IMG/VR virus record: IMGVR_UViG_2740892439_000018
Reading direction: 5' to 3' (one strand)
DNA: 16,746 nucleotides
DNA from: a virus
Lineage: Duplodnaviria; Heunggongvirae; Uroviricota; Caudoviricetes
Shown here: in pieces, positions 329 to 16,746 of the stretch
Layout: every line of letters begins with the position of its first letter
How positions within the stretch are numbered: position 1 is the first letter of the stretch
Notes under the pieces: model-generated
The model's input: only the letters and a program-made list of their open reading frames with translations
The model's database searches: none
What the model was told of the DNA's origin: nothing
Position numbers and translations under genes: made by a program

Positions 329-625
329 ATGTTCGAACAACGCGTAAATTCTGACGTACTGACCGTTTCTACCGTTAACTCTCAGGATCAGGTAACCCAA
401 AAACCCCTGCGTGACTCGGTTAAACAGGCACTGAAGAACTATTTTGCTCAACTGAATGGTCAGGATGTGAATGACCTCTATGAGCTGGTACTGGCTGAAG
501 TAGAACAGCCCCTGTTGGACATGGTGATGCAATACACCCGTGGTAACCAGACCCGTGCTGCGCTGATGATGGGCATCAACCGTGGTACGCTGCGTAAAAA
601 ATTGAAAAAATACGGCATGAACTAA
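329..625 (+). CDS. fis: DNA-binding protein Fis (nucleoid-associated factor for inversion stimulation)
   Basis: 98-aa product [21 protein letters not shown]...[17 protein letters not shown] recognised as E. coli Fis with C-terminal HTH; ATG 329, TAA 623-625. Confidence 0.97.
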
Positions 626-688
626 TTCAGGTTAGCTAAATGCTTGATTAAAAAGGCGCTACTCGGCATGGGGAAGCGCCTTTTTTAT
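609..688. repeat. attL: left copy of perfect 80-bp direct repeat (fis 3' end plus terminator)
   Basis: 80/80 identity with 15760-15839, checked base by base; flanking bases differ at 608/15759 and 689/15840. Covers the last 17 nt of fis and the downstream hairpin. Confidence 0.88.
650..688 (+). terminator. fis rho-independent terminator (copy inside attL)
   Basis: Stem AGGCGCT (654-660) / AGCGCCT (675-681) followed by TTTTTT (681-686); A-tract upstream. Confidence 0.7.
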
Positions 689-3746: not shown

Positions 3747-3805
3747 GAGGGGGCGGTCGGTGTCCGGCAGGGACGGTTTCGTCCTGAAAACCCCCCCCCC
3801 CCCCC
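3747..3805. other. GC-rich block plus C15 homopolymer between HNH and terS; candidate cos/packaging site
   Basis: GAGGGGGCGGTCGGTGTCCGGCAGGGACGGTTTCGTCCTG (3747-3786) then 15 consecutive C (3791-3805); sits where HNH-dependent cos phages place cos, upstream of terS. Confidence 0.4.
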
Positions 3806-3983: not shown

Positions 3984-4424
3984 TCAGTCATCATCGCCAT
4001 ACATCCAGTCGTTACGGTGTGCCGCCCGTTCTTCCTGCTCGCGATACATGCCCGCTTTACGGTTTGCTTTCGTGGCTGGATCTTCCCGTGTCGTCTTACG
4101 GTTGTGGCACGTCTGGCACAATGCCTGGTGATTCCACTCAGGCCAGAAGAGAACATCACCGCCGCCATTGATGGGAATGATGTGATCCACCACAAGAGCT
4201 GGCGTATAAATCCCCTTAGCCAGACAACGCACGCATAACGGGTTTTTGCTCAGGTACAGGGCGCGGTATTTGTCCCACTGTCGGGAATACCCGCGCGCGC
4301 GGCGGTGTCCCCGTCTGGCATCCTCTGCACGCCATGCAGCCCGCCTGTGCTCTTCACACTTGCCGGACTTCACGCGCTTATTACAGCCAGGCTCAGTGCA
4401 TCGCCTTAATGGTTGCCACGGCAT
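3984..4424 (-). CDS. HNH endonuclease (phage packaging-associated)
   Basis: 146-aa product with Cys-rich N-terminus (CTEPGC...C..C) and HNH core ...LVVDHIIPINGGGD...NHQALCQTCHNRKT; AGGGGTG Shine-Dalgarno; overlaps connector stop (TGATG). Confidence 0.9.
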   Translation of the reverse strand: MPWQPLRRCTEPGCNKRVKSGKCEEHRRAAWRAEDARRGHRRARGYSRQWDKYRALYLSKNPLCVRCLAKGIYTPALVVDHIIPINGGGDVLFWPEWNHQALCQTCHNRKTTREDPATKANRKAGMYREQEERAAHRNDWMYGDDD

Positions 4425-6537: not shown

Positions 6538-6549
6538 CCTTACTCATGA

Positions 6550-7717
6550 CTAGCCAGCTTTCATTTCCAGAATTTTGATGGCGTTTGAATCCACCACACC
6601 ACCGCCCAGATATTTATCCGTGTGGACCTTGTAGAATCCGGGTTCAGTAATGTTGTCCGGTCGGGTGCGAATCCCTGTTACATGATCAACGATGAAATAA
6701 CCACGACTGAAATCGCCAACCGCTAGCGGTGCTTTTCCTGCGCCGATGTCCGGCATGGACTCCAGGCAGTAAACAGGACGACCAAGCAACATATCCGGCG
6801 CACCTTCTTTAAGGCTGTCGCGCCAGATATAATCGCCGTTCTCATTTTTCAGCTTCTGTAGTGTCCCTGCCGTGCCCGAGTTCATCACCCAGACGGCATT
6901 TTTGCGGTATTTCGCTTTCAGCTTGTAGAGAATGTCGATCAGTTCGTCCGCTGTAATGGCGGTTCCACTTGCCGCTACCATTTTTTCAATGGTGCCAAAA
7001 GCGCGGGTTTTGTCACTGGTCGCCGCACGGGTGTAAGCATGAAGCCTTTCGGCTTGCCGTTACCGTTGCCATTAACAAAATCATCCTCTTCGGTGCTGGC
7101 GAACGTGTCGGCAATTTCGGAGGATAACCAGCCAGAATATCCACCTCTGAAAAATCTAGGATTTCCTGCGTGGTTTTCGGGTAGGCGTAGATCGGGTTCA
7201 GCTTGATGGTTACGCGTTCAATTTTCGGGGTGTTGGTTTCACTGCGTGCGCTGCCTTCTGTGCCTCGTCCTACAGTTGCGCCGCCAGTGGAAACCAGTTT
7301 CTGAAACTCATTTGATTTTGCAGTCTTCACGGTCGCGATCACGCGCATAACACTGTCATCCTGTAGCTGGCGCATGACTTCGCGATCAAGCTCAGGAATT
7401 ACGGTATATCCGCCATCCCTGCCGCTGTCAGTGCTGGTGGACAGAGATCGCACATCTCCGGTTACGATGTAGTTACGCAATTCATCAGATGATACTTTCT
7501 GGATGCCCGTTCCTGGCTTGCTGCGTTCTTCATCAGCCACAGACTCGAGGCGGGAAATGTCTGTATCGAGGGAATCAGCTTTTGCACGCAGTTCATCAAA
7601 CTGTTTGCCCTCGTCATCGTTCAGGCTGCGGTTTTCACTGTCGGCTTTTTCCAGCAGGGATCGCATCTGGTTTTTCAGGGCGTTTTTTTGCTGGCGGAGC
7701 TCGATTAATTTCTTCAT
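6550..7717 (-). pseudogene. Major capsid protein (HK97 family), disrupted by two single-base frameshifts
   Basis: N-terminal frame 7717-7013 (coiled-coil delta-like region then TIKLNPIYAYPKTTQEILDFSEVDILAGY); a third frame across about 7125-7035 reads SSEIADTFASTEEDDFVNGNGNGKPKGF; C-terminal frame 6981-6550 reads AYTRAATSDKTRAFGTIEKMVAASG...MKAG. Hand translation puts the shifts near 7119-7126 and 7036-7043. Confidence 0.85.
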
Positions 7718-7964: not shown

Positions 7965-8741
7965 ATGGAGATTCAAGTGACAAAAGAAATTCTTGCTGTT
8001 CCTGGGATGCGACCATCCCCATTGTTCAAAAGGACTTATAAATTAGTTCGGGAGATTGACGAAAGATTAACCAAACTGATTCATAGATGGCGATTTTTCA
8101 ATGCAGGCCCCCCCATGAAAGTTACTGCATATGATGGAACAGAAATATGCTATCAAGGTTTGGCATTTAAAGGTACTCCCGTTCAAATTTTTTGGAATGG
8201 TTTTATCGATCCTTACATTGAAAATAACTCAGAAATTGTTTTAGAGCAGACCTCCGCGTTAGCAATTGAATGTCAATTCTCAATAGAGGAGTCAATCGAG
8301 GAGGCTAAATTACTATTACTTGTGATGATTCGCAGGCTTTACTATGAAATGGCCGAAACAGATAAAATATTAAGAGGTGATGGGTTTTCCTTCCCAGAAA
8401 AAAAAGACGTTAGTGGTTATATTGAAAGTATCTCTCAAAAAATCATAGAACATGCTGAAATTGAAAAGCTAAAAAAAACGCATCCAAAACAAAACATATT
8501 CAACATAGCTACTGTAAATAGCCAATACGTACAACTTGGTACAAATAACAATATTAATATACAAGAGCTCTCTGAGTTCTTCTCAAAAATTGCATCAACT
8601 GGTGAAAAAGAAATTATTACTCTCTCAAAAAACCTTCTTAAGAAGGCCTACTCAAAAAACTTACTGAGTAAAGAAAACTATGAAGCTCTAATATCAAACC
8701 TTAACACACAGACAAAATACACTTTCAAATCTACTAGTTAA
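7965..8741 (+). CDS. Hypothetical protein (258 aa), AT-rich accessory gene, unrecognised family
   Basis: Long ORF on the strand opposite to every other island gene, visibly AT-rich; possible alternative GTG start at 7977 preceded by GGAG. C-terminal module NIFNIATVNSQYVQLGTNNNINIQEL...KNLLKK shared with the next gene. Confidence 0.75.
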   Translation: MEIQVTKEILAVPGMRPSPLFKRTYKLVREIDERLTKLIHRWRFFNAGPPMKVTAYDGTEICYQGLAFKGTPVQIFWNGFIDPYIENNSEIVLEQTSALAIECQFSIEESIEEAKLLLLVMIRRLYYEMAETDKILRGDGFSFPEKKDVSGYIESISQKIIEHAEIEKLKKTHPKQNIFNIATVNSQYVQLGTNNNINIQELSEFFSKIASTGEKEIITLSKNLLKKAYSKNLLSKENYEALISNLNTQTKYTFKSTS

Positions 8742-8770: not shown

Positions 8771-9280
8771 ATGGATCTTAACGTCATGGCATATCCAGAA
8801 AAATTCACAATCGCAGGAGTTGAATACAAGGGGAAAAGAAACTCAGCTGAAAAAAAAGTGCTAATCCCTTATACTGAAGAACCAGATATTAATATTGGAG
8901 ATGAAATCACTCAAAAACTAGGGAAGGGGGAAATAATATTAAAAGTAATTGATATGTCATTTTTACCAGGAGGTACACTCAATGTTGGTACTAATCACCC
9001 TCACATGCTTACATTAAAAGTCGAGAATCTGACTGCTAATGAACATAAACCAAAACAATCTAGCCAAAATACATTTAACATTGGTAACATATCCGGTACA
9101 CAGGTTCAACTCGGTGAGCATAACAATCTTATTGTAAATCTCAGCATAACTGAACTTGTTGAAAAAGTTTCTCAATCACAAGATCCTCAGGCAAAAAATT
9201 TGCTTAAGGATTTACTAAATAATAGTACGGTAGCCAGTCTCGTTGGTGCTGGTGCGTCCGCCTTGTTAACAATGCTTTGA
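8771..9280 (+). CDS. Hypothetical protein (169 aa), AT-rich accessory gene with hydrophobic C-terminal tail
   Basis: Strong GAGGAG Shine-Dalgarno 7 nt before ATG 8771, 29 nt after the previous stop; motif NTFNIGNISGTQVQLGEHNNLIVNLS...KNLLKD parallels the upstream protein; ends ...STVASLVGAGASALLTML. Confidence 0.8.
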   Translation: MDLNVMAYPEKFTIAGVEYKGKRNSAEKKVLIPYTEEPDINIGDEITQKLGKGEIILKVIDMSFLPGGTLNVGTNHPHMLTLKVENLTANEHKPKQSSQNTFNIGNISGTQVQLGEHNNLIVNLSITELVEKVSQSQDPQAKNLLKDLLNNSTVASLVGAGASALLTML

Positions 9281-9281
9281 G

Positions 9282-9312
9282 TATATGGCCTGGCAAAGAG
9301 CCAGGCCATATA
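9282..9312. terminator. Bidirectional hairpin terminator between convergent genes
   Basis: Perfect 13-bp stem TATATGGCCTGGC (9282-9294) / GCCAGGCCATATA (9300-9312), 5-nt loop; AT-rich flanks; between the stop at 9280 (+) and the stop at 9315 (-). Confidence 0.7.
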
Positions 9313-9314
9313 AT

Positions 9315-9575
9315 TCATTTCTCACTCATCCAATTAGGAGGTAGTGGCATTTTTTTCCTTAAAACCTGCAAATGCTCAATCAAAACATTAACCTGCTCTT
9401 GATTTGTTGCAAGGATTTCATCTGATAGCGTGCTACGAATAAAATCATGATGGTCAATCCACAGTAAACCACCATTTGCAAGGGCCTGACGGTACTGAGT
9501 GGTAGGCATTGAAGCAATATCATGAAGTCCGAATTGATCAAAATAATTGTTTATTTCATGCGTCAGAATCGGCAT
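9315..9575 (-). CDS. Hypothetical protein (86 aa)
   Basis: ORF with AGGAAG Shine-Dalgarno upstream of ATG 9575; lies just downstream of the iteron region on the minus strand; no recognised family. Confidence 0.55.
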   Translation of the reverse strand: MPILTHEINNYFDQFGLHDIASMPTTQYRQALANGGLLWIDHHDFIRSTLSDEILATNQEQVNVLIEHLQVLRKKMPLPPNWMSEK

Positions 9576-9723
9576 TATTTCTTCCTATTTTATCTAATTT
9601 ATCTAATTTGTAGTCATTTTTAACCAGTATTCGGTCAAATCAAGCGCGTGTTTTTGTGTGCTTTACTGTCATAGTCTTTATCTCACAGCAGTAAATTAAA
9701 ATTTTTGCGTTTTAACCCTTCAC

Positions 9724-9946
9724 CTGTTCACCTTTTGATATTTTATCTTTTAATTCATAAGGTTAAGGGGTGAACAGTTTCACAAAAACTATTCACCAAC
9801 TGTTCACCACTGTTCACCCTTGAAGCTCAATAAACAATCAAAAAGGTGAACAGTGAATAGTTTGGTGAACAGTTCATAAATAACTGTTCACCCTATAATA
9901 TACTGATATAAAAGATATTTATGACAGGGTGAACAGTGGTGAACAG
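9724..9946. repeat. Iteron array (9 copies of GGTGAACAG / CTGTTCACC in both orientations); putative island replication origin
   Basis: Forward copies at 9769, 9845, 9864, 9928, 9938; reverse copies at 9724, 9800, 9810, 9884; embedded in AT-rich DNA immediately 3' of the primase-helicase stop (9960-9962). Confidence 0.72.
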
Positions 9947-9959
9947 TTATTCCATAAGT

Positions 9960-11777
9960 TTAATTTTTGCTATCGTCATTAGTGACCGATACACATGATG
10001 GCATCCAGTCTTCTGATTCCTCCGTCAGTGTCACGTTTGAACGCAAACCGTGCTTCGTTTTCCGTTTCATATACTCCCTGCCATATTCCGCCATTGCCCC
10101 CGGCATATCTTTACCGAAGCGCGTCAGTGTTACAGGTTTACCAAACCCATGTGCCCTCATATAAGCCAGATAGGCATGATAGAGATATCTGCGCGGGCTG
10201 AATGGCACAATTTCAGCATTACCCACTAACAGGCCATCACACATTACCGACGCCATGAGATAGCCGCAGAAGTCCACCAGCGAATCCCCCTCTCGCTTTA
10301 TCGCCAGTGCTTCTTCAGATTTCTGCTGCTCATATAACAGGCGTCTGGCTTCGTCCTGGTTAGCAAACCGTGTAAGCAGATGGCGAATCACTACCGCCAG
10401 CTCACCTTCTATTTTTTCCGCCAGCATCGGATCACGTTCGTTCTCCGGTACAACTTCCGAAAAATTGAATATCACCCGACGACGTGAGATCCCCCCGCTG
10501 CGGTCACTGAATGACATGGCGTTATTGTTAACCGCCAGCACTACTGCCGGAATACGCGTTGAGTAGGGAGCTTTGTGTTTCGGGTCAATTGCCACCTTGT
10601 CACCGCCTGTAATGGCCTTAATCCCTGCCCCATCACCAGCGTAGCGGGTCATATCCGGCATGATAATCAGAGAAAAGCCAACCACTAACGCACGTTCCCT
10701 TGCATCTTCCAGCGCCTTCATGCTTGCTGATACTGTATTAGCCTTACCCGCCAGCATGGTGCAAATCTCCGCCATTACGCTTTTACCGCTTCCACCAGGA
10801 CCAGTTACCTCAATGAATAACTGCCAGTCATATCTGTTCGCCAGCACCATGAATAATGCCGCCAGTACACGATCCGCTTTGCGATCATTCTCAGCCACCG
10901 AACGGTGCAACCACTTCCAGAAATTCGGCGCATGTGTTGCCAGCGTTTCCCCCTCTGCTGGTGGGCTGAAAGGTAATTCACTGGCAATTAACAACCAGTC
11001 GTTTTTGTTATGCTCCCGAAAATTACCTGTTCTGGTATCAAATACCCCGTTACTGAATCCAATCAAGTTACGGGCTGTATTCCCCATTACAGGCAAACTT
11101 AACTTCATGGTATCGACCGCTGATTTAATAGCGTTCTGTGAATAGCTGATCTCCGCATCAATGAAAATCTGCGCCATAGCACGCTGTAACTCTTTATCCT
11201 GAACCGGCTCCCATATAACGCCGTTGTAATGGTGAACAGTGTCAGAGTCAGCATGAATCGCCAGTTCACCACCATAATGTGCCAGGAGAACTTCGCCGCG
11301 TTGACTTGCTCCCATCTGGTTAAGCGCCAGTGATGAAGCGTTATCGTCTTTTACCCGCTCTTTTTTCTTTACAGGCAGTTCAACAACCTTTTTCTTTTCC
11401 GCCAGCTCTCCCCGCTCACGCTCCAGATATTCGCGCCAGTTCTCCCGTTTCTGGCTGTGCATTCCTTCAGGGTAATAATCAGCATCCCTGACACCTGCCG
11501 CTGCCAGTTTCTGCCCGATGGTATTAACAAGTCCCGGACGCAATAACCCCGCCTGATAGAGACGCACACGATAGCGTCCGTCTGGTACGATTTGCAGGTT
11601 GTCCAGTTCGGCAAGTTGTTGCTCTCCAAGCCAGACAGGTGGCACGTTATCGCCAGCCAGTCGCCCGTCCTGTTCCTGCCACTGCTTCGCATGTGCCCAC
11701 GCATCACTACCCGCAAAAATGATGACTTCCGTCATTTTGTCACGCGGTTGGTGTTTTAAATTTGGCGCTTTTTTCAT
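9960..11777 (-). CDS. Replication initiator: P4-alpha/D5-like primase-helicase (Pri-Rep) with Walker A GPGGSGKS
   Basis: 605-aa product from ATG 11777 (GGAGAGAG Shine-Dalgarno; ATGA overlap with upstream gene); central P-loop NTPase (VTGPGGSGKS...DxxxD) resembles D5_N/SF3-helicase replication proteins of P4-like elements; ori iterons abut its 3' end. Confidence 0.88.
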   Translation of the reverse strand: MKKAPNLKHQPRDKMTEVIIFAGSDAWAHAKQWQEQDGRLAGDNVPPVWLGEQQLAELDNLQIVPDGRYRVRLYQAGLLRPGLVNTIGQKLAAAGVRDADYYPEGMHSQKRENWREYLERERGELAEKKKVVELPVKKKERVKDDNASSLALNQMGASQRGEVLLAHYGGELAIHADSDTVHHYNGVIWEPVQDKELQRAMAQIFIDAEISYSQNAIKSAVDTMKLSLPVMGNTARNLIGFSNGVFDTRTGNFREHNKNDWLLIASELPFSPPAEGETLATHAPNFWKWLHRSVAENDRKADRVLAALFMVLANRYDWQLFIEVTGPGGSGKSVMAEICTMLAGKANTVSASMKALEDARERALVVGFSLIIMPDMTRYAGDGAGIKAITGGDKVAIDPKHKAPYSTRIPAVVLAVNNNAMSFSDRSGGISRRRVIFNFSEVVPENERDPMLAEKIEGELAVVIRHLLTRFANQDEARRLLYEQQKSEEALAIKREGDSLVDFCGYLMASVMCDGLLVGNAEIVPFSPRRYLYHAYLAYMRAHGFGKPVTLTRFGKDMPGAMAEYGREYMKRKTKHGLRSNVTLTEESEDWMPSCVSVTNDDSKN

Positions 11778-12073
11778 TTCTGCTCTCTCCACGCGGCAAT
11801 CATGTTTTTCAGTTCCTGTAGTTTTTTATCCACATCCACACGTGACACATGGTTATTTCTGGAAGGCGGGATTTCCCGCCGGAATCTGCAAATAAAGATC
11901 TCCACGTTCAGCGAGCTATGAAATGAATAGCCATCACGAATAAAGTACACACGGTCAAACATTATCGATTTTACTGTTACTCTGTTGCCGTTCTTATCCC
12001 GATAAATAGCGCCGGGGATAATTTTGGGATGTGCATAACCGCTGGCAGTCAAGCCAGATAAATACGTTCTCAT
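11774..12073 (-). CDS. Hypothetical protein (99 aa), coupled to pri-rep
   Basis: ORF whose stop overlaps the pri-rep ATG (ATGA); unrecognised family. Confidence 0.55.
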   Translation of the reverse strand: MRTYLSGLTASGYAHPKIIPGAIYRDKNGNRVTVKSIMFDRVYFIRDGYSFHSSLNVEIFICRFRREIPPSRNNHVSRVDVDKKLQELKNMIAAWREQK

Positions 12074-13315: not shown

Positions 13316-13537
13316 TTACGCCGATTTCAGTTGTGCTTTGGGTTGACGATCAAGCCAATCATTAACCTCAGACAGCAACCAACCGACAGAACGAGCCCCC
13401 AACTGACGACGGGCTGGAAACACCCCTTTCCTTTCCATCATATAACGCGTCGTTCGGCAAATACCGGTAAGGCGTCGGCATTCCTCCTCACGAATGATGC
13501 GATCAAATTGGTCTTGCGATGATTTAACTTTGCTCAT
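13316..13537 (-). CDS. alpA: AlpA-family transcriptional regulator / excisionase-like HTH protein
   Basis: 73-aa product from ATG 13537: ...QFDRIIREEECRRLTGICRTTRYMMERKGVFPARRQLGARSVGWLLSEVNDWL matches the AlpA/prophage CP4-57 regulator pattern. ORF-track upstream extension not supported. Confidence 0.85.
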   Translation of the reverse strand: MSKVKSSQDQFDRIIREEECRRLTGICRTTRYMMERKGVFPARRQLGARSVGWLLSEVNDWLDRQPKAQLKSA

Positions 13538-13630: not shown

Positions 13631-14364
13631 GTTCGCCCTAAGTATTTAGCCCACGTATTCTTATCTGTTGCGGGAAGAAACACCCCTTTCATCGCTGCCG
13701 CAGCCTCTAAAACAGCGATCACTTTAGCAACTGGAGCAGTTCCAATATCTATATCATCCATTTCTGGAATTAGTTTGATTAATGCAGGGATCAACTCAGC
13801 TTTCTTCGCAAGAGTTTTTGGCGATTCTCCCATTTTTCTTCCAGGCATGGTTCCAACATCTTTGATATGCTCCAAATCCTTAGCCATTACACATAAAAAC
13901 CTTCTGTCGATCTCAATAGCCCCATCACTCATAATTTGACATTCCCAGTTTTCTGATTCAGGACGAGTTGAAAAAAAAGATGATACTATCCTTGCATCAT
14001 TGCCAATAAATTCAAGTTCAGAAAAACTTTCCCGATTTAGATAGAAGAAACCGCAAAAATTCTTTGCAAGATAAGAAGCCACACCAAAATAATTTACCCA
14101 TTCAAAATCGCTACCAACAGGCTTCATCCCTGTAATTACCCAGCGATCCCCTTGCAACATCCCTCCAGAATCAACATCAATATTTTCAACTAATGATTTT
14201 GGTATAACTAGCGATTTACATGGATGACAGTTTGGAAAATAAACAGAAATATTCAAAGCACCTATAGCAGCAAAATGATATATATCATTAAGCGTACATC
14301 CCAGCTTCTTTGCTGCTTCAGGCAATGGATAATATATACGCTCAGGGATGCTTATCTTTTTCAT
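13627..14364 (-). CDS. Hypothetical protein (245 aa), AT-rich, translationally coupled to int; possible N-terminal HTH
   Basis: ATG (14364-14362) overlaps the int stop TGA (14363-14361); visibly lower GC than int; N-terminal LPEAAKKLGCTLNDIYHFAAIGAL resembles an excisionase/AlpA-type HTH; remainder unrecognised. Confidence 0.78.
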   Translation of the reverse strand: MKKISIPERIYYPLPEAAKKLGCTLNDIYHFAAIGALNISVYFPNCHPCKSLVIPKSLVENIDVDSGGMLQGDRWVITGMKPVGSDFEWVNYFGVASYLAKNFCGFFYLNRESFSELEFIGNDARIVSSFFSTRPESENWECQIMSDGAIEIDRRFLCVMAKDLEHIKDVGTMPGRKMGESPKTLAKKAELIPALIKLIPEMDDIDIGTAPVAKVIAVLEAAAAMKGVFLPATDKNTWAKYLGRT

Positions 14365-15584
14365 TTCGCTACCTTCAATATTTTTACATTTGAATACTGA
14401 CCAGAAATAACCTCAAGCCGTTCCATCCATTTATTTAGAGCGTCTAGTTTTTCTGGTAAGTACTGGCTACGATTGTATATGGCCATTACACCACCTAATG
14501 TGTGACCGAGAAGCTGTTCAACAACATGTGGTGCAATCCCCATGTTATTTAGTGTGGTAGCAAACGTCCTGCGCAGGTCGTGAAGTGTCCACGATTCAAT
14601 ATGCCCCAGACGCTTATATATCATCCTCCCCCATTGGCTGACAGCTTCTGGTTTCTTTATTTCACCCAACAAAAGACCTGAGTTTTTGTGTTGCTCTATA
14701 AGCTGTTGGATGAATGGGCGTATTACCACTGGAATAGGGCGCAATATCTTCTCTCCGCCTTTGCTGTGTTCTTTAGGCACTGTCCAGATCCAATCCTTTA
14801 AATCCCACTCTGTAATACGTGACAACCGAAGCTCCTGGGTTCGACATCCAAACACCACCAATAGACGCAACAACGATGAATAGTATGGTTTAAATTTCTT
14901 ACCTGAACATTCCTGCCAAATATCTGCTAACTCTTGACTGCTGTGTTCCCTATCGCGCTTATTCTGTTTTCTACCAACATCATCGATAGTCAGGTCATCC
15001 AGAGCATTGCTAACCGCATAACGATGTACGCGGCAAAACTTCAGAGCCTGCTTACACATCTGCAGCAAATAACCAGCTGCCACTGGAGCGTCATTCCTTA
15101 CTCTAGCGAAACACTCCAGCCAATGCCGGGTTTCGCACATTGATAACGGATAATCACCTATATAGGGGAAAATATGCTTCCTCAGTTGCTCAATGTGTTT
15201 ATCAACATTCGTGCGCTTGTAAACGGCGTATTCTCTGATCCAGTAATCCAGAGCCTCTTTTACCGTCACTGGTTTGAGTGTTTCATGTATTGCCACATTT
15301 AACCGATGCTTTGGATTTTTACCTTCAGCAAGCCATGCTCGACACTGTTCACGTTTCTCGCGCGCAGCTTTCAGAGAAAGATCCGGGTAGTTTCCAAGCT
15401 TAACACGCTGTGAATACGATTCACGCCCACCAATCCGGAAAGAGAAATACCAAGTAAGAACGCCAATTTTTGACACCTTGATACTCAATCCATCACCGTC
15501 AGCATAAAATCTATCTCTATCGATTTCCCTCCCCAGCATCTTACGCAACGATGTATCGCTTAATTTGTTCGTTCCTCCAGCCAT
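14361..15584 (-). CDS. int: Tyrosine site-specific integrase (P4-type)
   Basis: 407-aa product from ATG 15584 (AAGG Shine-Dalgarno); N-terminal MAGGTNKLSD... and C-terminal catalytic region ...WTLHDLRRTFATTL...VEQLLGHTLGGVMAIYNRSQY typical of P4-family integrases. ORF-track start 15665 is TTG. Confidence 0.93.
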   Translation of the reverse strand: MAGGTNKLSDTSLRKMLGREIDRDRFYADGDGLSIKVSKIGVLTWYFSFRIGGRESYSQRVKLGNYPDLSLKAAREKREQCRAWLAEGKNPKHRLNVAIHETLKPVTVKEALDYWIREYAVYKRTNVDKHIEQLRKHIFPYIGDYPLSMCETRHWLECFARVRNDAPVAAGYLLQMCKQALKFCRVHRYAVSNALDDLTIDDVGRKQNKRDREHSSQELADIWQECSGKKFKPYYSSLLRLLVVFGCRTQELRLSRITEWDLKDWIWTVPKEHSKGGEKILRPIPVVIRPFIQQLIEQHKNSGLLLGEIKKPEAVSQWGRMIYKRLGHIESWTLHDLRRTFATTLNNMGIAPHVVEQLLGHTLGGVMAIYNRSQYLPEKLDALNKWMERLEVISGQYSNVKILKVAK

Positions 15585-15759: not shown

Positions 15760-15839
15760 AATACGGCATGAACTAATTCAGGTTAGCTAAATGCTTGATT
15801 AAAAAGGCGCTACTCGGCATGGGGAAGCGCCTTTTTTAT
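15760..15839. repeat. attR: right copy of perfect 80-bp direct repeat
   Basis: Identical to 609-688; contains a second copy of the fis 3' end and terminator hairpin (about 15801-15839) just upstream of yhdJ. Confidence 0.88.
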
Positions 15840-15861: not shown

Positions 15862-16746
15862 ATGAGAACAGGATGTGAACCGACCCGGTTTGGTAATGAA
15901 GCTAAGACCATTATTCACGGTGATGCCCTTGCCGAACTTAAAAAGCTACCTACTGAAAGCGTCGATCTGATCTTTGCCGACCCACCGTATAACATCGGTA
16001 AAAATTTTGATGGTCTGATCGAAGCCTGGAAAGAAGATCTGTTTATCGACTGGCTGTTTGAAGTGATTGCAGAGTGCCACCGCGTTCTGAAAAAGCAGGG
16101 CAGCATGTACATTATGAACAGTACGGAAAACATGCCCTTTATCGATCTCCAGTGCCGCAAGCTTTTTACCATCAAAAGTCGCATCGTCTGGTCATATGAC
16201 AGTTCTGGAGTACAGGCGAAAAAACACTACGGCTCCATGTACGAACCCATCCTGATGATGGTGAAAGACGCAAAGAACTACACATTCAACGGTGATGCTA
16301 TTCTGGTAGAAGCCAAAACCGGATCGCAGCGCGCGTTGATCGATTATCGCAAAAATCCTCCACAGCCATACAATCATCAAAAAGTACCGGGTAACGTCTG
16401 GGATTTTCCGCGCGTGCGTTATTTAATGGATGAATATGAGAACCACCCGACGCAAAAACCGGAAGCCTTACTGAAACGCATTATTCTCGCCTCTTCCAAC
16501 CCAGGCGATATCGTTCTCGACCCGTTTGCCGGTAGCTTTACTACCGGTGCCGTAGCCATCGCCAGCGGACGAAAATTCATTGGTATTGAGATCAACAGCG
16601 AGTACATCAAAATGGGGCTTCGACGGCTGGATGTCGCGTCGCATTACTCCGCGGAAGAACTGGCGAAAGTGAAAAAAAGAAAGACGGGCAACCGGTCAAA
16701 ACGATGCCGGGTTAGCGAAGTTGACCCCGATCTCATTGCAAAGTAA
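15862..16746 (+). CDS. yhdJ: DNA adenine (N6) methyltransferase YhdJ
   Basis: Product MRTGCEPTRFGNE...FADPPYNIG... (DPPY motif) recognised as E. coli YhdJ; AGGGA Shine-Dalgarno before ATG 15862; the in-frame GTG at 15856 used by the ORF track is less likely. TAA at 16744-16746. Confidence 0.93.
   Translation: MRTGCEPTRFGNEAKTIIHGDALAELKKLPTESVDLIFADPPYNIGKNFDGLIEAWKEDLFIDWLFEVIAECHRVLKKQGSMYIMNSTENMPFIDLQCRKLFTIKSRIVWSYDSSGVQAKKHYGSMYEPILMMVKDAKNYTFNGDAILVEAKTGSQRALIDYRKNPPQPYNHQKVPGNVWDFPRVRYLMDEYENHPTQKPEALLKRIILASSNPGDIVLDPFAGSFTTGAVAIASGRKFIGIEINSEYIKMGLRRLDVASHYSAEELAKVKKRKTGNRSKRCRVSEVDPDLIAK

Follow-up and report, generated by a model that had tools for sequence, protein, structure and literature searches.

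Where does a satellite island begin to copy its own DNA, and what part in that step is played by a dense cluster of short repeats, or iterons, beside its initiator gene? These questions are raised by IMG/VR virus record IMGVR_UViG_2740892439_000018, a 16,746-nucleotide stretch of Caudoviricetes DNA (the whole of which we call the window), in which an iteron array lies directly 3' of pri-rep, the gene for an initiator-helicase. The array belongs to a ~15-kb capsid-forming phage-inducible chromosomal island (cf-PICI) inserted at the 3' end of fis, and we conclude, from sequence and from analogy with studied satellites, that it is very probably the origin used by this island for vegetative replication. 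Features observed directly carry this conclusion, namely the site map, its dyad symmetry, the low-stability spacers, the domain homology of the initiator, and the pattern of conservation among relatives. An origin of this kind comes as no surprise, being a phage-inducible chromosomal island (PICI) origin of the type already known from the alpha protein of satellite phage P4.

An iteron cluster directly follows pri-rep

In the layouts given here and below, F and R denote TGTTCACC and GGTGAACA, respectively, as read on the plus strand, lower-case letters denote degenerate sites, and numbers are spacer lengths in base pairs.

9960-11777, minus strand: pri-rep initiator-helicase gene (605 aa), with D5_N, superfamily 3 (SF3) helicase, and C-terminal origin-binding domains
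9717-9946, no strand: complete iteron array, fF-36-R-13-fFF-26-RrR-13-F-35-RR, with dyad symmetry

The first iteron lies 13 nt downstream of the pri-rep stop codon (9960-9962). Nine exact copies of the 9-mer GGTGAACAG/CTGTTCACC occur within 9724-9946 (223 bp), of which five read GGTGAACAG on the plus strand (at 9769, 9845, 9864, 9928, and 9938) and four read CTGTTCACC (at 9724, 9800, 9810, and 9884). An initial annotation, made from the sequence alone, had described nine copies in both orientations within about 220 bp of AT-rich DNA immediately after the pri-rep stop, and each element of that description was borne out; the G+C content of the intergenic region (9576-9959) is 32%, compared to ~51% in the adjacent pri-rep gene. 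Comparison with relatives revealed three degenerate sites, CCTTCACC at 9717-9724, CTATTCACC at 9789-9797, and GTGAATAG at 9853-9860, and the array therefore comprises 12 sites spanning 9717-9946.

The initial annotation had also raised the possibility that the repeats are a common dispersed motif. Allowing at most one mismatch, we found 21 matches to the GGTGAACAG 9-mer in the window, compared to 2.98 ± 1.78 in 200 dinucleotide-preserving shuffles of the window, none of which gave 21. The exact 8-mer core, TGTTCACC, matched 11 times in the whole window with 0.65 matches expected, and a sliding count over the window revealed one iteron cluster only, with a density outside it at the level of chance. 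The 9-mer is absent from an unrelated 49-kb stretch of E. coli chromosome (L090), and thus is not a dispersed chromosomal motif. Together, the shuffles, expected counts, unrelated chromosome, and single cluster rule out chance or a dispersed motif as the source of the repeats.

Searches for other kinds of feature were negative. No open reading frame (ORF) of at least 50 aa lies within 9576-9959, an Rfam search of the window found no family, and a pattern search of 9560-9990 found no DnaA boxes, IHF sites, GATC clusters, Fis-like sites, or oriC-type 13-mer.

Two mirror-image half-modules are colinear with the P4 origin

The 12 sites fall into two halves arranged about a central spacer.

9845-9946, no strand: gene-proximal half-module, RRR-13-F-35-RR, colinear with the P4 ori core at 75% identity
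9717-9818, no strand: gene-distal half-module, the mirror of the proximal half; its reverse complement is 73% identical to P4 ori
9893-9927, no strand: 35-bp AT-rich spacer with convergent iterons on either side; candidate unwinding element 1 and least stable 30-mer
9733-9768, no strand: 36-bp AT-rich spacer with convergent iterons on either side; candidate unwinding element 2 and third least stable 30-mer
9819-9844, no strand: central 26-bp spacer at the dyad center, 26-27 bp long in E. coli relatives and 36-37 bp long in those from Klebsiella and Raoultella

The two half-modules, one of them reverse-complemented, align at 75% identity, and the array matches its own opposite strand at 69% over 246 bp, which explains why BLAST reports two 'places' for it in most genomes. 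Tandem iterons start 10-11 bp apart and would thus lie on one face of the helix. Within 9300-10300, where the free energy of 30-mers has a mean of -37.7 and a standard deviation of 3.7, values of -27.0 and -29.4 were obtained for the 9893-9927 and 9733-9768 spacers, respectively, and the latter spacer keeps its length of 36 bp in relatives. The 30-mer of second lowest stability, at 9585, spans a TATCTAATT tandem outside the array.

The iteron itself is that of P4. GenBank record X51522 labels an 'ori type 1 repeat' in both the ori and crr regions of P4, and the type 1 repeats read from this sequence are TGTTCACC/GGTGAACA, occurring as GGTGAACAG in ori; the annotated P4 repeats and the window iteron are therefore the same. 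The P4 ori core (X51522 9310-9413) has the layout R-2-R-3-R-14-F-35-R-2-R, and in a three-way alignment all six sites of each window half were in register with those of P4 ori. The identity between the window halves and P4 ori was 73-75%, compared to no more than 62-65% in shuffled controls (for the proximal half, 75% compared to a maximum of 62%).

A PICI origin with experimental support has the same architecture. In Gram-negative PICIs, the origin is the region directly 3' of the initiator gene, where two sets of iterons flank AT-rich DNA; a rep-ori segment from the island EcCICFT073 keeps a temperature-sensitive plasmid at the restrictive temperature, and deletion of rep or ori abolishes or reduces plasmid maintenance (PMC6092414). 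We located EcCICFT073 in CFT073 and found that its Pri-Rep is 48% identical to that of the window and that the 288-bp region after its pri-rep gene has the window-type site layout (FF-~38-R-12/13-FFF-~25-RRR-~12-F-~36-RR), built from the iteron CTGTCTACC. By this comparison, the window array is the architectural homolog of a tested origin.

In P4, the site directly 3' of alpha is crr and not ori, and the window array occupies the corresponding position. It might then be a crr-like cis-acting enhancer, with replication starting from another origin in a different part of the island. We regard this assignment as very unlikely: the 15-kb island contains no second iteron cluster, the array fits the P4 ori layout (FF-35-R-13/14-FFF) and not the crr unit (FF-35-RRR-6-F), and pri-rep plus the downstream region of EcCICFT073 alone sustained plasmid replication (PMC6092414).

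A different alternative arises from the setting of the array within an operon, with pri-rep on one side and a further gene on the other. Between pri-rep and the array there is no terminator, and the sole terminator-like hairpin in 9200-10100 (at 9282-9312) lies beyond the next gene. The iterons of plasmid replicons commonly serve copy control too, and the repeats could be mainly regulatory, functioning as Pri-Rep operator or handcuffing sites that govern copy number or downstream transcription and not melting. However, a consensus scan of 9200-10100, array included, found no sigma-70-like promoter; the conserved, least stable 35/36-bp AT spacers between convergent sites are a feature of origins; and the downstream gene varies among islands as the array stays constant. 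A mainly regulatory function is thus highly improbable, and a regulatory role could in any case coexist with origin function.

Pri-Rep has a P4-type origin-binding domain and lacks a P4-type primase domain

The product of the adjoining gene is the putative ligand of the array. In the ORF list, pri-rep spans 9960-11792 (610 aa); the 9960-11777 boundaries used here are those annotated in the near-identical record of the E. coli MS6198 chromosome, to which the window is 99.7% identical.

9999-10289, minus strand: C-terminal winged-helix origin-binding domain (residues 502-598 of the 610-aa ORF), matched by phmmer to 1KA8 and by Pfam Pox_D5
11379-11777, minus strand: N-terminal Pri-Rep domain (~130 aa) with a Toprim-like alpha/beta fold, differing from the P4 primase domain

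Pri-Rep is 48% identical to residues 290-771 of P4 alpha. Residues 502-598 match PDB entry 1KA8, the origin-binding domain of P4 alpha (phmmer E 1.8e-24), which is a winged helix (PMC2777425). The helicase core of Pri-Rep matches the PriRep protein of SaPI5 (7OLA, E 2.4e-10). P4 alpha reportedly binds type 1 iterons specifically.

The N-terminus is a different matter. The initial annotation had called the protein a primase-helicase, and the MS6198 annotation (from PGAP) names it a 'DNA primase family protein'. This label is only half supported, since Pri-Rep clearly has helicase and origin-binding parts but lacks a P4-type zinc-finger/DnaG primase domain. The idea that the N-terminus is a diverged P4 primase domain has no sequence support (hhalign E 0.33), and resemblance to DnaG-type Toprim domains is a modest one of fold only. 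A MAFFT alignment pairs 'IIFAGSDAW' of Pri-Rep with 'IAEGYATA' of P4 alpha, a pairing that is unreliable as evidence for a primase.

Iterons are conserved as spacers diverge

Of 5426 complete E. coli genomes, 689 contain the intergenic region of the window, which occurs both in cf-PICIs and in classical PICIs with a downstream ssb, ProQ/FinO gene, and perC. Site order and spacing are unchanged in eight E. coli-group relatives, down to ~75% DNA identity. In these eight, as in most of 80 loci from other species, the array is directly 3' of the initiator gene, and among the 80 loci an array of the window layout comes immediately after the gene in Klebsiella, Raoultella, Citrobacter, Kluyvera, Pectobacterium, Xenorhabdus, Photorhabdus, Erwinia, and Zobellella.

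The initial annotation had proposed comparing iterons across related islands. When 13 diverged copies were aligned, the window base was kept in 92.5% of cases in iteron columns but in only 67% in spacer columns (Mann-Whitney p 6e-12), and TTCACC was the most constrained part of the iteron. As judged from these alignments, the iterons are under selection in relatives while the spacers diverge. The sequence-level predictions of an island origin recognized by its own initiator, also advanced in the initial annotation, thus all hold, with respect to position, P4 iteron, 1KA8 domain, and conservation.

When viral contigs were scanned for the FF-spacer-R module, 122 instances emerged, and in 118 of them the spacer was exactly 35 bp. 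Full mirrored arrays accounted for 74 of the 75 instances just downstream of an alpha-type C-terminus, and the 47 instances without an alpha-type gene beside them were half arrays resembling P4 ori. These results define two classes, one gene-adjacent and mirrored (PICI type) and one a remote half array (P4 type).

Several genomes hold variations on these themes. In Xenorhabdus and Photorhabdus (L027-L081), there are several alpha-type elements per genome (five loci in X. ehlersii), with alpha proteins of ~805-847 aa and a mirrored TGTTCACC-like array starting ~41-44 nt after the gene, indicating that long, primase-bearing alphas can also have a gene-adjacent mirrored array. In Pantoea and Ewingella (L086-L089), the stop codon of full-length alpha homologs (~790 aa) is followed at once by a strong hairpin terminator, as in P4. 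No array was found within 450 bp of the alpha gene in L086, L088, and L089, and in L087 a pair of degenerate iteron copies lies ~140 bp downstream of the gene. One ~10-kb viral contig (L095, IMGVR_UViG_2690316346_000015) contains full mirrored arrays at 4042-4102 and 9631-9691, 5.6 kb apart, each adjoining an alpha-type C-terminus; this contig might represent satellite copies assembled in tandem or as a concatemer.

Iteron classes and specificity

In some relatives, TGTTCACC is missing after the gene, and the layout is retained with another repeat: GGTAGACAG in E. ruysiae (L013); GGTAGACAC in Kluyvera, Enterobacter, and Lelliottia; GGTGGAGA in Rahnella; and GGCGGACAG in Serratia. The change of iteron is accompanied by change in the C-terminal domain, most clearly in the wing segment, which reads KRKTKHG-LRSNVTL in proteins of the TGTTCACC type, has a 5-residue insertion in several proteins of the GTAGACA type, and has a different insertion in the Serratia protein. 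This pairing of iteron classes with altered C-terminal domains fits the earlier suggestion that iteron sequence sets replicon specificity, and the sequence comparisons make the wing segment a likely determinant of that specificity. Such variants of iteron and DNA-binding domain constitute a natural series for studying the recognition code of this family of winged-helix initiators.

Pseudocitrobacter faecalis (L083) and Escherichia sp. ESNIH1 (L084) have near-identical C-terminal domains in which the wing differs by N to T and M to V changes, and their arrays use different iterons, GGTATACAC and (T)ATGAACAC, respectively. These loci provide a natural pair for mapping specificity determinants.

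The island and its neighboring genes

The array and pri-rep belong to an island of ~15 kb that sits between fis and yhdJ and is bounded by perfect 80-bp direct repeats, the left of which overlaps the last 17 nt of fis. These repeats are likely attL and attR.

609-688, plus strand: 80-bp direct repeat, att site at the fis 3' end, left boundary; identical to 15760-15839
15760-15839, plus strand: 80-bp direct repeat, att site beside int, right boundary; identical to 609-688
14361-15584, minus strand: tyrosine integrase, from integrase domains and the MS6198 annotation
13316-13537, minus strand: alpA, PICI induction regulator (Pfam PF05930, E 1.4e-14); a helix-turn-helix regulator in MS6198
9640-9672, minus strand: 11-codon remnant (ATGACAGTAAAGCAC...TGA) of the usual small post-origin gene, from the sequence and alignment with relatives
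9591-9608, no strand: tandem TATCTAATT x2 (TTATCTAATT tandem) in the leader of the 86-aa gene, upstream of its ribosome-binding site and ATG (9575)
9315-9575, minus strand: 86-aa gene (phrog_1957), the last of the early operon, unrelated to the gene found here in relatives
9282-9312, no strand: hairpin terminator between convergent genes, shared with the plus-strand gene pair

The island also encodes an Icd-like protein and a DUF4222 protein, and all of its early genes are on the minus strand. Between fis and yhdJ, the MS6198 copy contains genes for HK97-type capsid, protease, portal, connector, HNH, TerS, and TerL proteins and no tail genes, as annotated by PGAP. Capsid, portal, and terminase genes without tail genes, together with int and alpA, make up the gene set of a cf-PICI. 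The closest entry in the phage collection is a 16.5-kb 'induced prophage', vB_KppS-Ant.

In related islands, the origin is followed by a small gene and then ssb, but in the window these are replaced by the unrelated 86-aa gene. The initial annotation had placed a tandem just upstream of the array at 9588-9607. That tandem exists, slightly offset, as two copies of TATCTAATT, and it is not in the conserved origin: most relatives share homology only from ~9620 onward, and a position outside this block and in the leader of the 86-aa gene makes the tandem part of a swapped-in module. For the same reasons, we rejected the TTATCTAATT tandem as a part of the origin.

Two plus-strand genes (7965-8741 and 8771-9280) are opposed to the rest of the island and end at the 9282-9312 hairpin. 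Both match phrog_5789, the former weakly (E 2e-4), and neither has a Pfam, NCBIfam, or PADLOC match; they are likely to be accessory cargo. PADLOC found no defense match for the neighboring uncharacterized genes. Just outside the island, at 15888-15963 and within the first 110 bp of yhdJ, substitutions relative to MS6198 are dense, pointing to either a boundary of recombination or another allele of yhdJ.

A model for initiation

How would such an origin fire? First, based upon published PICI work, induction of a helper phage would lead AlpA to switch on the early operon, and Pri-Rep would be made. Second, the winged-helix C-terminal domain of Pri-Rep would bind the TGTTCACC iterons, as expected from its homology to the P4 alpha domain and from the identity of the iterons. 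The 12 sites are laid out as two mirror modules, each consisting of a triple iteron, 13 bp, an opposed single iteron, the 35/36-bp AT spacer, and a double iteron. Third, each module could nucleate one SF3 hexamer over its AT-rich spacer, which would melt, and the two hexamers, facing opposite ways, would give bidirectional theta replication. These hexamer steps are modeled by analogy on P4 alpha, on the self-loading Rep helicases of pathogenicity islands from Staphylococcus aureus (SaPIs), and on SF3 initiators at palindromic origins. With both halves side by side, a distant crr-like second site would not be needed. Finally, because Pri-Rep has no P4-type primase domain, a separate primase, for which host DnaG is the simplest candidate, is probably needed to make the primers.

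Several points weigh against the array being the origin of this island or against parts of this mechanism. P4 needs two separated sites, ori and crr, whereas the window island has one, and the single-site claim therefore rests on PICI precedent. Replication, binding, and melting in the window island are deduced from sequence comparison and analogy, and priming is the weakest step of the mechanism. The relation of wing to iteron is not one-to-one: EcCICFT073 has a GTAGACA-type iteron without the wing insertion of other GTAGACA-type relatives, and in L079 and L082 the wings are similar and the iterons slightly different. The wing is for this reason a likely, and not a proven, determinant of specificity. 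Lastly, single-base indels relative to MS6198 are found in the capsid and packaging genes. Those at 7037 and 7131 break the frame of the capsid gene (6548-7717, minus strand), which is split into ORFs 6550-6981 and 7013-7717; further indels near 3791 and 3968 affect the TerS/HNH region. The window copy of the island may be decaying.

In a decaying island, the array could be an inactive relic that merely looks intact, and the replacement of the usual downstream gene and ssb, with an 11-codon remnant left behind, would fit such a history. We consider a relic extremely unlikely. Despite the indels in the capsid region, the array is 100% identical to that of MS6198, pri-rep is intact, and all 12 sites are in register; moreover, the indels could equally be real decay or homopolymer sequencing errors.

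If the array is the replication origin of the island, then a cis-acting origin and a replicon specificity class are defined for a module present in ~13% of complete E. coli genomes, and the 12-site map could be used in the design of minimal replicons or of interference. As the iteron is the same and the half arrays are colinear with P4 ori, P4 alpha and Pri-Rep might act on each other's origins. We offer the following only as a tentative proposal, which we doubt more than we believe: that the two proteins cross-fire or titrate origins, that the mirrored array is ancestral and the P4 ori plus crr arrangement derived, and that a primase-less initiator relies on host DnaG. Were cross-recognition to occur, cross-activation or incompatibility would link two satellite families with different helpers inside a single cell.

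Comparison with known satellites

Among PICIs, EcCICFT073 and the window island both have the origin directly 3' of pri-rep, with iteron sets in both orientations flanking AT-rich DNA, and they have in common the N-terminal domain of Pri-Rep, the upstream DUF4222 gene, alpA, and int. They differ in the iteron, CTGTCTACC in EcCICFT073 and CTGTTCACC in the window, and in the helicase and C-terminal parts of Pri-Rep, which are only ~45% identical. In EcCICFT073, moreover, ssb and perC follow the origin, whereas the window island has neither and ranks among the capsid-forming islands, encoding capsid, portal, and terminase proteins of its own. In this latter respect it resembles the cf-PICI prototype, EcCIEDL933, in which int, alpA, and pri-rep are likewise followed by genes for HK97-type capsid, protease, portal, connector, HNH, TerS, and TerL proteins, and the window origin region is ~94% identical to copies in O157:H7 genomes. 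Unlike EcCIEDL933, the window island is located between fis and yhdJ and has two extra plus-strand genes. In the parts of the cf-PICI paper available to us (Alqurainy et al., bioRxiv 10.1101/2022.09.08.507074), we found no iterons or origin analysis.

The SaPIs of Gram-positive hosts offer a more distant parallel. The winged-helix C-terminal domain of SaPI Reps binds iterons downstream of rep, and two hexamers are modeled to load on either side of an AT-rich region (PMC9371898). As in the window, the origin comes immediately after the initiator gene (rep), a single protein is both initiator and helicase, with a detectably homologous core (the 7OLA match described above), and 6-12 short iterons in opposite directions are split around AT-rich DNA. 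However, SaPI iterons are 5-6 bp long and of unrelated sequence, the AT-rich region is a single central one rather than two spacers of 35/36 bp, and the DNA-binding domain has no detectable sequence similarity to that of the window protein.

At the level of DNA, there is also a likeness to P4. The iteron of ori and crr is identical, the ori core is colinear with each window half, the 35-bp AT-rich spacer and the 2-3 bp gaps separating tandem sites recur, and P4 alpha shares with Pri-Rep, at the 48% identity noted above, an SF3 helicase and a 1KA8-type origin-binding winged helix. The differences are ones of arrangement and accessories. In P4, a lone half-module at ori is separated by 4.7 kb from a pair of 120-bp crr units adjoining alpha, whereas the window island has a single mirrored double module beside the gene and no bipartite combination of ori and distant crr. 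P4 alpha has a 290-aa N-terminal primase region that Pri-Rep does not, and a terminator stands between alpha and crr but not between pri-rep and the window array. P4 also encodes Cnr; in the window a DUF4222 gene lies upstream of pri-rep, with no Cnr homolog there. We considered the DUF4222 gene as an equivalent of Cnr and rejected it, as there is no similarity and Cnr belongs to DUF5375.

P4 and PICIs have been proposed to have evolved independently, with a PICI origin organization unlike that of other known replicons (Fillol-Salom et al., 2018; PMC6092414). Neither the text nor the supplements of that study give iteron sequences, which appear in a figure only. The site-for-site colinearity of a PICI-type origin with P4 ori may be under-appreciated, as may the clean division into mirrored arrays beside the gene and half arrays of the kind seen in P4; both points are refinements and not surprises. 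Our comparison links the origins of PICIs with that of P4, binding site by binding site. It leaves the understanding of satellite replication unchanged, adding one member and sharpening a relationship that was already known.
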